The position numbers are program-made. A DNA stretch of 62,175 nt, filler included, from an uncultured Methanosarcinales archaeon (GTDB lineage Archaea > Nanobdellota > Nanobdellia > Woesearchaeales > CAIVOO01): NCBI GenBank assembly GCA_964485195.1. It is 7 parts of 7 records of this genome, joined end to end, with 100 filler letters (N's around TTAATTAATTAA, not from the genome) between each part and the next. Parts side by side here need not be neighbours in the genome. Positions count along the whole stretch, not along the records: positions 32,058 to 41,195 come from CAZAIK010000016.1; 6 more parts are not named here. One strand, 5' to 3'. Positions 36,001-39,000 of this stretch are shown one piece after another. Each line of letters starts with the position of its first letter. The first letter of the stretch is position 1.

Positions 36001-39000
36001 CGGGCCCATGGTCTAGTGGCTACGCATAATGCGCCGCAAATGACATCTCCCTTACAAGGAGAGGATCCCCGGTTCGAGTCCGGGTGGGCCCACTCATTTT
36101 AGAAAAAGCGCCAGTAGTCTAGTGGTTAGGACACGAGCTTGCCAAGCCATAACGCAGAAAGCTTGTAACCCGGGTTCGAATCCCGGCTGGCGCATTTGTT
36201 CAAAGCATTTTTCTTTTCAGCTCCCTTACTGTGTTTTTCCCGGCTCTTTTGTCTCATAGTTGAGGGAGACAGAAACATCAAATGAATCTTCTCTCTTATA
36301 CCCCACTATTTCTGACGTGTAAAGCCCATCCTTGCTCTCCTGCGAAAGCCTTAATGCCCATATGTCATCATTTTCCAATTCAGGCCTTATGGTATTTATC
36401 TCAATTCCATCTTCAGAATACTTGAAATTGTCATTTGCAACTTCAGCGAGGTCGCCCTTCTTTATGTTGTTATGCGGGGATCCGCTTATCCATTCTGCAG
36501 AGATGCCTGCCAAATCATTCATCTTGGCATTCTCGCATACAGGAACCACTGTGCATAACACTCTTGTCATATCCTGAAAGGTTCCTGTTTGATTTATAAA
36601 ATTTTCTATTTTAATTACTTTTTTGTGGTTACAACCTTTTTTAATTATGACTACGCACCTGAACCTTATGGCAACAGACTTTACTGAAAAAGAAACTGTT
36701 GAAAAATACTCTGAGGGTGTGCTGGCAGAAGAGCTTGCGCTGAAACCAGTTATTCTTGAAGCAGCAGGGGAAGTCAAAGGCCTGAACATTGCGGATCTTG
36801 GCTGCGGGGACGGCCGTTACAGCAAGGTATTTGCAGAAAGAGGGGCTAAAATCATTGCTGTTGACCTCTCATCATACCAGATTGAGATTGCGAAGAAAAA
36901 GAACAGTCACGAGAACATAACATACATCAATGAGGATGTGGCGTCTGTACCTGGAATAAGGGAGAACTTTGCAGACTTGGTGCTGATGAACCTTGTAATC
37001 CCAGACATTGAAAACAGGGAAAAGCTGGGGAAAGTCGTGAAAGAAGCTGCCAGGGTATTAAGGCAGAAAGGCAGGGCAATAATCTCAACACTCCATCCCC
37101 TTTACCTTTCCCCCGACCAGGATTCCTCTGATAAAGCTGTTGATTTCAAAAAAGAGAATTATTTCAGGGAGGGCTGTGTTTACAAGTCGGAAGCCGTGAC
37201 AAGAGAAGGAAGGAAGATTGTTTTTAGTGAAACGCACTTCTCGCTGAATTTCATCTCAAAAAAATTAGAAGAGAACAAACTCATTACAACCCGCTTAATT
37301 GAAAGCAGGCCAGTGCCTGAAAAAGGGATTTTCCTCCCAAAATACCTTGTCTTTGAATGCATTAAGAAATAGGTCATTTCTTGACCGCGAAAACATTAAG
37401 CCACTGCATTTCTATGTGGACGTCGCCGGGAGAGGGGTATATCTCTATTATCCTGAACCCCAGGGATTCCAGTATTTCCTTTATTTCCTCTTTGGCATAA
37501 TAAGCAAAGAATCTCCCATTGCCAAACTCAATGTTTGTGTATCTCTCTCCAACCCCTTCCAGCAGGGACAAGTACAATATGCCTCCTTTTTTCATCACAG
37601 AACTAACCTGTTTCAGTGTTTCCCCCGCCTGCTTTTTTGGGATGTGCAGGGCAGAGGCAGCTGCCCAAACCCCGTCAAAATGCTCCCTGGGAAATTCAGG
37701 CCTTGTCAGGTCCATTTTTCTGAATTCTGCCCTTGGCGCGTTTTGCCTGGCAAGTTTGAGAAAGCTTTCAGACAGGTCAATTCCAACAACCTCAAAGTTG
37801 TTTTCAGAAAAATATCTTGCGTCCCTGCCCGGCCCGCAGCCAAGGTCAAGAATCCTTTTTCCCTCAAGATTGTCAATGAAAAGGTCGGCGAAGTCCCTCA
37901 TGAAATCAAGGTTTCCGTACCTGGCCGTCCATTCCTCTGCAATCTCATCATACACCTTTATTGTTTCCTCAACAGGATCTTTCATTTAACTGCTTAATAC
38001 CGCAATTTTTATAAATGAACCGCTTAATGTCAGCATATGGGCCCGTAGCTTAGCCTGGAGCCTTTGGCGGGCAATTAGAGCGCCGGTCTTATATGTCCTG
38101 CGTTCGCGCAACTAAGACAGCCGGAGGTCCCGAGTTCAAAATGAGAAATGGAAATCTCGGCGGGCCCATACCAAATATTAAAAAGGACTGCGCAAGTGGC
38201 TACGCTTCCCACTCATTATAGTTAAAATATGCCTTAACATTAAGCTTTCCGTCATAAGCAATAATCTTTACTTTTGATTCCTTCAACATGTTTACAGCGT
38301 CTTCAATCTCCTCTCTCCACCTGTCATCAGTCTTTTCAATCATCTGCTTGTGCGTGACTAAAAATTTAATCCCAGAAGTTATAATGGCATTTACGCAATT
38401 GATGCAGGGGAGACAAGGCATTGCCATTGTTAGCCCTTTGATAGACAGCCCCTTTTTTGCTGCTTTGTAAATCAAATCTCTTTCTGCATGATTAAGGTAG
38501 TGATGTACACTTTCTCCTGTCGTACGTTTCTTTGTATGTTTCACACCAGGAGCAAAAGTGTTCATTCCTTTCAGAATAATTTTGTTATCTTTAACAAGCA
38601 ACGCCCCAACATGCGTAGTTGGGTGGCTGCTTTTTCTTGCATATCTATAGCAAGCCCTAATCCAAGAGGCATATTTCTTGTCCTGAGTGGTCTCTATGCC
38701 TAATTTCTTAACATCCATAACGTGAAAAAAATACCTGGATAGTTTATAAAACTAATGTCATTTAATTATTTGCATTCCGAAAGGTTTTTATATCCTCATA
38801 TCAGCACTAACTGATATGACTATTGAAAACAATCTTAGACTACTAAAAGCACTTAGCGAAGAATCAAGATACAAGATAGTAGAAGTCCTTCTTAATGGTG
38901 AGAAATGCGCTTGTGAGATACCTGCGTTGATTGGGAGAACTCAGAGCAATACATCAATGCACTTGACAAAGCTAACTGACTTAGGAATCCTTCAATCACG

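Follow-up and report, generated by a model that had tools for sequence, protein, structure and literature searches.

A three-intron gene for tRNA-Ile(UAU), the very probable decoder of AUA in a Woesearchaeota-like archaeon without a recognisable TiaS

Introduction

The usual archaeal route to reading AUA relies on a CAU tRNA that carries agmatidine, installed by TiaS. Reading of AUA by a UAU anticodon without TiaS is already known from Nanoarchaeum equitans, Korarchaeum cryptofilum and the ARMAN archaea (PMC3239211, PMC8450103, PMC6000648, PMC3575796); here and below, published systems are described from the portions of the sources available to us. In the ARMAN archaea, tRNA-Ile(UAU) is present and Ile(CAU) and TiaS are both absent (PMC3239211). 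Like the organism studied here, ARMAN-2 (Candidatus Micrarchaeum) is a DPANN archaeon with neither TiaS nor tRNA-Ile(CAU) in which UAU was proposed to read AUA, and in vitro splicing was shown for its pre-tRNA-Ile(UAU), which contains a 25-nt intron at position 37/38 within a strict hBHBh' motif (Fujishima et al. 2011, PMC3239211).

In N. equitans and K. cryptofilum, tRNA-Ile(UAU), termed 'Ile3', replaces Ile2(CAU) without tiaS, as we find here; the Korarchaeum gene resembles that organism's own GAU tRNA and, unlike the GAU gene, has one intron, and the available portions of these accounts make no mention of introns in the N. equitans gene (PMC8450103, PMC6000648, PMC3575796). A comparable substitution is found in Mycoplasma mobile and other tilS-less bacteria, which have lost the C34-modifying enzyme and use a UAU tRNA, encoded without introns, instead (PMC3575796). 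The gene described below, which is archaeal and has three introns, adds another case of UAU decoding of AUA without TiaS. We found no published description of it in the literature, and it reveals no new mechanism.

Results

Positions 38039-38167 (+) of the window (the whole stretch of DNA analysed, 62,175 nt), equivalent to C16:5982-6110 (+) in contig numbering, hold a genuine tRNA gene that has anticodon TAT and is interrupted by three small introns. It lies in a gap of 214 nt, and the ORFs on either side are both on the minus strand. Inspection of the upstream sequence revealed a TATA-box-like TTTATAAA at 38008..38015 (+), centred ~28 nt upstream of the tRNA 5' end, which is likely to be an archaeal promoter element. 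Exon 1 (20 nt, 38039..38058), placed by an intron-aware tRNA solver and by alignment, comprises the 5' acceptor strand, the 5' D-stem strand and the D loop to G18 G19. Exon 2 (19 nt, 38075..38093; solver) continues from the end of the D loop through the 3' D-stem strand and the 5' anticodon-stem strand to A37 of the anticodon loop, with the anticodon TAT at 38090-38092. Exon 3 (22 nt, 38119..38140; solver and alignment) runs from A38 through the 3' anticodon-stem strand, the variable loop and the 5' T-stem strand to T-loop position 59, and exon 4 (13 nt, 38155..38167; solver) supplies the last T-loop base and the 3' T-stem and acceptor strands, all on the plus strand. The discriminator A follows directly 3' of exon 4, at 38168, and CCA is not encoded.

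The solver, which combines candidate bulge-helix-bulge (BHB) motifs with ARAGORN, returned this three-intron tRNA(TAT) as its top reading of the locus, with a score of 53.5 compared with 44-45 for the best reading with any other anticodon and 47-55 for other tRNAs of the same genome; of 120 dinucleotide-shuffled versions of the locus, none could be solved. The genome-wide survey's note had placed a TAT tRNA gene at these coordinates, and both results bear it out. With the three introns taken out, the solver's product is a 74-nt cloverleaf in which all 21 stem pairs form, including one G-U in the D stem and one U-G in the anticodon stem. Its acceptor, D, anticodon and T stems have 7, 4, 5 and 5 bp, its anticodon and T loops have 7 nt each, and the conserved bases are all present (U8, A14, G18 G19, U33, a purine at 37, TTCRA in the T loop and G53:C61). 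Alternative anticodon-loop splice registers of 27 and 29 nt gave the anticodon TTA or worse, at scores of 31-36, and were discarded. As the note had stated, standard tools do not see the gene: on repetition, ARAGORN missed it with or without -i, and Rfam RF00005 had no match at the locus in the genomic sequence even at E<=10, the gathering score not being reached. The Rfam result is expected for unspliced sequence, since the gene is broken at three sites.

Each of the three introns lies within a BHB motif with all four central-helix pairs formed. Intron 1 (16 nt, 38059..38074 (+)) interrupts the D loop at Sprinzl position 19/20 in our own numbering and has a strict hBHBh' motif, with a 4-bp central helix and 3-bp outer and inner helices. 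Moving the splice register by 1 nt, to a 14-nt intron at 38060-38073, preserves a BHB motif but leaves a 12-nt D loop. Intron 2 (25 nt, 38094..38118 (+)) occupies the canonical 37/38 site and has a strict BHB motif with a complete 4-bp central helix, a 4-bp outer and a 2-bp inner helix, in which loop bases 32-35 pair with TAAG close to the intron 3' end. Intron 3 (14 nt, 38141..38154 (+)) lies in the T loop at 59/60; its motif is relaxed and hBH-like, with a 4-bp central helix, the T stem (4 bp) as the outer helix and a 1-bp inner helix. The number of introns and the lengths of the anticodon-loop and T-loop introns thus stand as originally proposed, and for the latter the BHB motif now fixes the ends while the spliced product is unchanged. 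The first intron had been given as 19 nt, and here the proposal fails: by hand and in the candidate list, the ends of that intron, and with them the exon 1/2 junction, fit no BHB motif, and the motif together with alignment to relatives lacking the intron yields 16 nt. This makes the mature tRNA 74 nt long instead of 71.

A single gene for the splicing endonuclease EndA was found, on C6; the 183-aa product is alpha-type, with both Pfam domains detected. Enzymes of the alpha4 type have long been believed to require strict BHB motifs. Given that view, the 1-bp inner helix of intron 3 counts against our reading of the locus. In DPANN archaea, alpha4-type enzymes occur alongside many disrupted tRNAs, and the L3 loop of alpha4 EndA has been linked to such tRNAs (PMC5829648, in the portions available).

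The gene was also said to be conserved, and this holds over a wider sample: tRNA(TAT) was solved in 19 of the 29 loci taken from relatives, TiaS-less genomes among them, and the anticodon loop is invariant in all 19 of these distinct sequences. Compensatory double changes affect 11 of the 17 acceptor, anticodon and T-stem pairs, and only 3 of 323 cells are unpaired, counts that were made on solutions picked by a solver that rewards pairing. The exact pattern of anticodon arm and intron matched once per genome in 51 of the 201 genomes of the phylum, and the reversed-pattern control gave no match. The 37/38 intron is constant, present in 19/19 solved orthologues and 7/7 aligned genes, whereas the D-loop and T-loop introns are variably present; intron 3 is missing from all six aligned relatives, including a genome of the same genus.

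Could the locus instead be a decaying or silent pseudogene, or a sequence that resembles a tRNA by chance, with three 'introns' that stay in place? The failure of the standard tools is what such a sequence would give, and a search for sequencing runs that contain the stretch listed four DNA metagenomes, one of them perhaps its source, and no RNA run. Yet we consider this scarcely credible: every stem pair forms once the introns are out, a BHB motif sits exactly at the ends of each insertion, no shuffle was solved, and the anticodon loop is conserved in orthologues throughout the order, with compensatory changes in the stems. Codon usage points the same way. In 960 long ORFs, ATA occurs 37.0 times per 1000 codons, compared with 24.7 for ATT and 15.9 for ATC; it makes up 48% of Ile codons, in keeping with the survey's statement that AUA is the most used of them, and is the fourth commonest codon overall. 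Without the tRNA(TAT) gene, 37 codons per 1000 would lack a decoder.

The relationship to tRNA-Ile(GAT) noted earlier for the acceptor stem, D arm and T arm is close. The two tRNAs differ at 8 of 74 positions, 7 of which are in the anticodon arm, so that 56 of 57 positions outside it are identical; A73 is common to both. A resemblance between the UAU and GAU tRNAs is seen in Korarchaeum as well, in the portions of the accounts available.

Our census of the genome comprises 42 tRNA genes with 41 anticodons and covers all 20 amino acids. It combines 35 solver loci with 7 found by hand; manual inspection changed the anticodon of one solver locus, C4:2185-2329, from TGC to Glu TTC. With only strict BHB motifs allowed, the 29 loci that the solver recovered did not include tRNA-Ile(GAU) or either CAT gene; allowing one central-helix mismatch raised the number to 35. 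The census lacks five CNN tRNAs (Ala CGC, Arg CCG, Gly CCC, Pro CGG and Leu CAG). All GNN and UNN tRNAs, Met and Trp were recovered, and the census is therefore sensitive. Partial 3' copies of tRNA-Leu lie on C20 and C1.

Structure-anchored scans of the genome, which are blind to split or permuted genes and to introns elsewhere in the anticodon arm, found two compact CAT genes, one TAT, one GAT and no AAT gene. The CAT genes, at C1:50985-51102 and C2:116195-116323, are the same two that the survey had reported. One is the initiator, as A1:U72 and GGG/CCC in the anticodon stem indicate, and the other must serve elongator Met; no third CAT tRNA was found by these scans. Six extra CAT and six extra TAT matches failed BHB, T-loop or D-loop checks. 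One of these, at C3:9825-10246, passed two of the three checks and was rejected, being mostly within a 579-codon open frame and having no TTC after its 'T stem'.

TiaS is missing, as had been claimed. TiaS_FLD (PF08489) had no match at E<=10 in this genome, in any of the 61 genomes of the order or in any of the 201 of the phylum, whereas 4/4 archaeal controls matched. The second TiaS domain, TiaS_TCKD (PF22641), and the TilS domain (PF09179) likewise gave no match in the genome at E<=10, with controls matching. Neither half of the tRNA-Ile2(CAU)/TiaS agmatidine system was thus detected.

A hidden tRNA-Ile2(CAU), paired with a C34-modifying enzyme that we would not recognise, could nevertheless be the main AUA decoder and leave tRNA(UAU) redundant. 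Such a gene could lie outside the assembly, which has 32 contigs and 810 N, or could be split, permuted or disrupted in an unusual way; five CNN tRNAs were missed by the census, and the tRNA-Leu copies show that odd tRNA arrangements exist. The genome is, however, rated 99.47% complete, the five missing tRNAs are all dispensable CNN species, both TiaS domains are absent, TiaS_FLD throughout the phylum, and published TiaS-less archaea use UAU alone (PMC3239211, PMC8450103, in the portions available). Weighing these points, we regard a hidden Ile2(CAU) as highly unlikely. The proposal that AUA is read by a UAU anticodon, and not by agmatidine-modified CAU, is supported, with every testable link holding.

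Discussion

Taken together, the evidence makes it very probable that this locus is the single-copy gene for a tRNA-Ile(UAU) that is spliced, charged with Ile and used to read AUA in place of the TiaS route. We infer transcription, splicing, ligation and charging as follows. The primary transcript would contain the D-loop, 37/38 and T-loop introns, of 16, 25 and 14 nt, each within its BHB motif; the genome's single alpha-type endonuclease would cut in the 3-nt bulges, and an RNA ligase would join the four exons into the 74-nt tRNA. IleRS would then charge tRNA(UAU) with isoleucine, the acceptor stem, D arm, variable loop, T arm and A73 being common to tRNA-Ile(GAU). The UAU anticodon would read AUA, the commonest Ile codon of the genome, and the tRNA would thereby replace the agmatidine-modified CAU species.

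The length and site of the 37/38 intron of ARMAN-2 are those of intron 2, and the site of intron 3 recurs in ARMAN-2 as the 59/60 intron of tRNA-Cys (PMC3239211, in the portion available). The present gene differs in having two further introns, in the D loop and T loop. The lineages also differ: the nearest named proteins come from Woesearchaeota/Nanoarchaeota, and the organism is Woesearchaeota-like, whereas ARMAN-2 belongs to Micrarchaeota. Splicing is predicted from sequence here and, according to that same source (PMC3239211), was achieved in vitro for ARMAN-2, whose endonuclease is a three-unit epsilon2 enzyme, in contrast to the single 183-aa alpha-type protein encoded here. N. equitans differs again, with an (alpha-beta)2 endonuclease (PMC5829648, as far as the available portion goes), and Korarchaeum has one intron in its UAU gene where we find three.

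A study of Thermoproteales reportedly found tRNA genes with up to three introns. As here, those multi-intron genes have several BHB introns at non-canonical sites such as the D loop and 59/60 and are missed by standard finders; their enzymes are (alpha-beta)2 with a Crenarchaea-specific loop, unlike the alpha-type enzyme here. For annotation the consequence is practical, since standard finders overlook the sole decoder of the commonest Ile codon, and an automated annotation would suggest that the organism has no means of decoding 37 of every 1000 codons. TiaS was found in 0 of 201 genomes of the phylum and the exact tRNA(TAT) signature in 51 or more, which takes the known substitution of UAU for agmatidine-CAU beyond a few reference archaea to a broad set of genomes. 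The question may be restated as how misreading of AUG by the UAU anticodon is prevented in such archaea.

In M. mobile, IleRS and the ribosome are reportedly adapted to the UAU tRNA. Misreading of AUG could be avoided here by similar adaptation or by modification of U34, Elp3, the first enzyme of xm5U34 synthesis, being encoded in the genome. Some safeguard is needed, because haloarchaeal Ile tRNA mutants with U34 also bind AUG, with ribosome binding in the order AUA > AUG > AUU (PMC3895270, in the portion available). The same binding data, and the presence of Elp3, lend something to the view that a genuine tRNA decodes more than AUA: with U34 unmodified or of the xm5U type, it would also read AUG and/or AUU, so that Met/Ile decoding would be partly ambiguous or the tRNA would compete with tRNA-Met. 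We judge this quite improbable, as the trait is retained across a large radiation, which argues that it is not harmful, and M. mobile reads AUA with a UAU tRNA (PMC3575796, in the portion available).

The constancy of intron 2 raises a further, rather doubtful idea: that the 37/38 intron of tRNA-Ile(UAU) is selected throughout the radiation, some step needing the intron-containing precursor. In eukaryotes, pseudouridylation of tRNA-Ile(UAU) is intron-dependent. By analogy, the step may be a modification of U34 or U36 made with the anticodon still engaged in the BHB helix, which would stop UAU from misreading AUG. Eukaryotic tRNA-Ile(UAU) shares with the present one an intron-containing gene and UAU-type AUA decoding (PMC3895270, in the portion available) but has a wobble pseudouridine, whereas PF01416, the TruA/Pus1-family pseudouridine synthase, had no match in this genome, which counts against the idea. 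The relatives are non-independent samples, and 25 nt is too short for a C/D guide. In favour of selection, the 37/38 intron persists in every solved and aligned gene while its D-loop and T-loop counterparts come and go, and the tRNA-Ile(UAU) genes of ARMAN-2 and Korarchaeum are also intron-bearing (PMC3239211, PMC6000648, in the portions available). A considerable fraction of the tRNAs that Rfam detects in five relatives are, moreover, of intron-less length as judged by eye. In the closed genome of one relative, G022, just 14 tRNAs score over the Rfam threshold.

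Results

The gene for tRNA-Ile(UAU), anticodon TAT, occupies window positions 38039-38167 (+), corresponding to C16:5982-6110 (+) on contig C16, and falls in the 214-nt gap between the minus-strand ORFs 37374-37985 and 38200-38718; a TTTATAAA box was read from the sequence near it, at 38008-38015. The window joins contigs of one 1.126-Mb assembly (32 contigs, completeness rated 99.47%). With introns allowed, ARAGORN reported 25 tRNAs genome-wide and a single one in the window; Rfam gave 22 tRNAs over cut-off and 31 at E ≤ 10. As a full archaeal set numbers ~46 genes, well above what either tool reports, many tRNA genes in this genome must be disrupted. 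The TAT locus is absent from the output of both tools (Rfam at E ≤ 10), an outcome stated in the genome-wide survey's note and reproduced on rerunning them.

Candidate bulge-helix-bulge (BHB) introns were enumerated genome-wide and removed singly and pairwise, and ARAGORN then flagged loci, at each of which all combinations of up to three candidates were spliced out and the products scored by a cloverleaf parser of our own that penalizes each intron. The top product at the TAT locus has anticodon TAT and three introns and scores 53.5, the genome's other tRNAs ranging from 47 to 55 with the same solver. The best product with another anticodon scored 44-45 and requires a 21-nt variable arm, alternative splice registers at the anticodon loop scored 31-36, and 120 shuffles of the locus that preserve its dinucleotides yielded no ARAGORN-accepted product. 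The three-intron TAT gene proposed by the survey is thus upheld.

The introns had been delimited at 19, 25 and 14 nt; the latter two lengths stand, whereas the D-loop intron is 16 nt. Exon 1 (38039-38058) is followed by intron 1 in the D loop (38059-38074, 16 nt), exon 2 (38075-38093), intron 2 at the canonical 37/38 site (38094-38118, 25 nt), exon 3 (38119-38140), intron 3 in the T loop at position 59/60 (38141-38154, 14 nt) and exon 4 (38155-38167), all on the plus strand; the discriminator A is at 38168 and CCA is not encoded. Intron 1 forms a perfect hBHBh' motif (4-bp central, 3-bp outer and 3-bp inner helix), and its removal leaves a 10-nt D loop that is the same as in tRNA-Ile(GAU) except for the last base. 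No BHB motif lies at the ends of the 19-nt version, and a register shifted by one base (14 nt) forms the motif but leaves a 12-nt D loop. Alignment with six relatives settles the length: four lack the insertion and read straight across the junction made by the 16-nt removal, while in the same-genus genome and in one of the same family the insertion at this site is longer. The mature length is accordingly 74 nt instead of 71. Intron 2 has a strict BHB motif, in which TAAG near the intron end pairs with loop bases 32-35 and each 3-nt bulge has its splice site after base two. Intron 3, seen in this alignment only in the genome under study, has four sequence-equivalent registers, one of which (38141-38154) forms a BHB motif; its outer helix is the T stem, and the motif is classed as relaxed because the inner helix is only 1 bp.

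The spliced tRNA differs from tRNA-Ile(GAU) (C1:858-947) at 8 of 74 positions, seven of them in the 17-nt anticodon arm. Outside that arm 56/57 positions are identical, with A73 in both, which bears out the match in acceptor stem, D arm and T arm noted earlier. From this near-identity we infer that the tRNA would be charged by IleRS.

A DNA search with the locus matched 58 of 61 genomes of the same order at E ≤ 1 (at least 55 families; 44 genomes ≥90% complete), many matches being the GAU paralogue or short arms. Among 29 loci fetched from relatives, 19 were solved as tRNA(TAT), four as GAU tRNA and one as Lys(CTT), and five gave nothing above the solver threshold. At least two three-intron solutions, in relatives G001 and G003, were over-split by the solver; alignment gives two introns. 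All 19 solved TAT loci carry the 37/38-site intron, and the anticodon loop is invariant over their 19 distinct mature sequences, in which double compensatory changes are seen at 11 of the 17 pairs of the acceptor, anticodon and T stems and 3/323 cells are unpaired, with a solver that rewards pairing. A pattern matched exactly, with 17-47 nt allowed between the TAT-bearing anticodon-arm strand and the 3' strand plus variable loop, was met once per genome in 51 of 201 genomes of the phylum, among them members of other orders of the class; this is a lower bound, as the pattern is strict, and the reversed pattern gave no match.

The census comprises 42 tRNA genes with 41 anticodons, with each of the 20 amino acids and every GNN and UNN family represented: 35 loci by solver and seven by hand (Ser GCT, Ser TGA, Thr CGT, Val GAC, Cys GCA, Arg CCT and Leu TAA). 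One of the 35, C4:2185-2329, was called TGC by the solver and re-read by hand as Glu(TTC). No genome scan detected five CNN tRNAs (Ala CGC, Arg CCG, Gly CCC, Pro CGG and Leu CAG), whose codons can all be read by a UNN tRNA; either they are really lost, as in other small archaeal genomes, or their genes are still hidden. Loss of CNN tRNAs is documented for other archaea in PMC6000648.

A second scan, anchored on the anticodon stem-loop and allowing a 37/38 intron, an interrupted T loop and a GC-rich acceptor, gave 8 CAT, 7 TAT, 6 GAT and 10 AAT matches. BHB, T-loop and D-loop checks were applied to the CAT and TAT matches, and those compact and passing were the CAT genes C1:50985-51102 and C2:116195-116323 and the TAT locus alone. 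The one other match to pass two of the three checks lies largely within a 579-codon open frame. The only compact GAT match is C1:858-947 (90 nt), solved as tRNA-Ile(GAU), and the shortest AAT match is at least 237 nt. The same two CAT tRNAs as in the survey were therefore recovered, by scans able to see unsplit, unpermuted genes in the assembled sequence (810 N) whose anticodon arm is interrupted, if at all, at 37/38. The C1 gene carries the initiator hallmarks A1:U72 and, at the closing end of its anticodon stem, three G:C pairs; the C2 gene is unlike the Ile tRNAs and must serve the 22.7 ATG per 1000 codons.

The agmatidine synthase TiaS, missing according to the survey, was again not found: TiaS_FLD, TiaS_TCKD and the TilS domain had no match at E ≤ 10 in this genome, and both TiaS domains were detected in 4/4 archaeal controls. 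TiaS_FLD was found in none of the 61 genomes of the order and none of 201 phylum genomes, all ≥90% complete. Among 960 non-overlapping ORFs ≥120 codons long, which together span 82% of the genome, ATA occurs 11435 times (37.0 per 1000), ATT 7632 and ATC 4917; ATA thus makes up 48% of Ile codons and ranks fourth among all codons, in agreement with the earlier figures that made it the most used Ile codon.

Discussion

On the gene, the census, the TiaS search and codon use, the proposal that AUA is most likely read by a UAU anticodon rather than by agmatidine-modified CAU holds, as does the gene itself, one intron of which had been given wrong bounds. Biologically this is one more example of an arrangement already known, a UAU tRNA in TiaS-less archaea. 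Fujishima et al. 2011 (PMC3239211) describe three ARMAN lineages with tRNA-Ile(UAU) and, by their account, without tRNA-Ile(CAU) and TiaS; the ARMAN-2 pre-tRNA, with a 25-nt 37/38 intron and a strict hBHBh' motif, was spliced in vitro. In N. equitans and K. cryptofilum tRNA-Ile(UAU) is reported to replace Ile2 (tRNAscan-SE 2.0 paper, PMC8450103; PMC6000648), and PMC3575796 refers to a TAT gene in tiaS-less archaea. A full-text literature search, with most subscription journals and supplements outside it, returned no description of a Woesearchaeota case or of a three-intron tRNA-Ile(UAU).

By this reading the tRNA would be transcribed, spliced and charged, and its U34 may be modified. A look through sequencing runs turned up no RNA run containing the locus. 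U34 mutants of haloarchaeal Ile tRNAs bind AUA > AUG > AUU (PMC3895270), so some safeguard against misreading of AUG by tRNA(UAU) is to be expected. The genome encodes Elp3 (644 bits); a TruA/Pus1-family enzyme was not found in it. There is one gene for the splicing endonuclease EndA (183 aa, alpha type, both Pfam domains) at C6:47319-47870 (L031:1234-1785), and no second subunit at E ≤ 10. Its nearest named relatives are from 'Candidatus Woesearchaeota' and 'Nanoarchaeota', which places the organism among DPANN archaea of that group. Despite this single alpha-type gene, many tRNA introns in the genome are at non-canonical sites with relaxed BHB motifs; PMC5829648 reports that in several DPANN lineages EndAs of alpha4 type bearing an additional L3 loop go together with many disrupted tRNAs.

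In this genome the anticodons assigned by standard tools cannot be relied on. Both CAT genes were miscalled, as Thr(CGT) and Ser(CGA), and window 36002-36091 (C16:3945-4034) is a 92-nt tRNA-Arg(CCG) for ARAGORN and tRNA-Val(TAC) with an 18-nt D-loop intron for the solver (score 53). Three-intron genes also occur outside the window, at C1:84163-84318 (-), C4:2185-2329 (-) and C1:72921-73053 (+); Arg(CCT) and Glu(TTC), solved by hand, and Lys(CTT), by solver, each have D-loop, 37/38 and T-loop introns. The Ile(UAU) gene is thus not alone in being interrupted three times.

At window 58299-58766 (C20:1016-1483) a complete tRNA-Leu(TAG) gene with two introns has behind it two more copies that comprise its 3' part alone: the last stretch of the variable arm, the T arm and the acceptor strand. 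In front of each copy are a small hairpin and a conserved word of ~30 nt. On C1, at C1:103755-104259 (-), tRNA-Leu(CAA) is trailed in the same way, and both arrays contain runs of N; the partial copies may be 3' halves of split tRNAs, the product of tandem partial duplication, or an effect of collapse in the assembly. Leu(CAG) is among the tRNAs not found. Outside the window, tRNA-Val(GAC) at C7:15601-16057 (+) apparently has a very long insertion of ~57-nt tandem units, each repeating part of the anticodon region, interrupted by a 100-N run. The closed genome G022, from the same order (1.3 Mb, 100% complete), has only 14 tRNAs above the Rfam threshold, so heavy tRNA gene disruption is widespread in the order.
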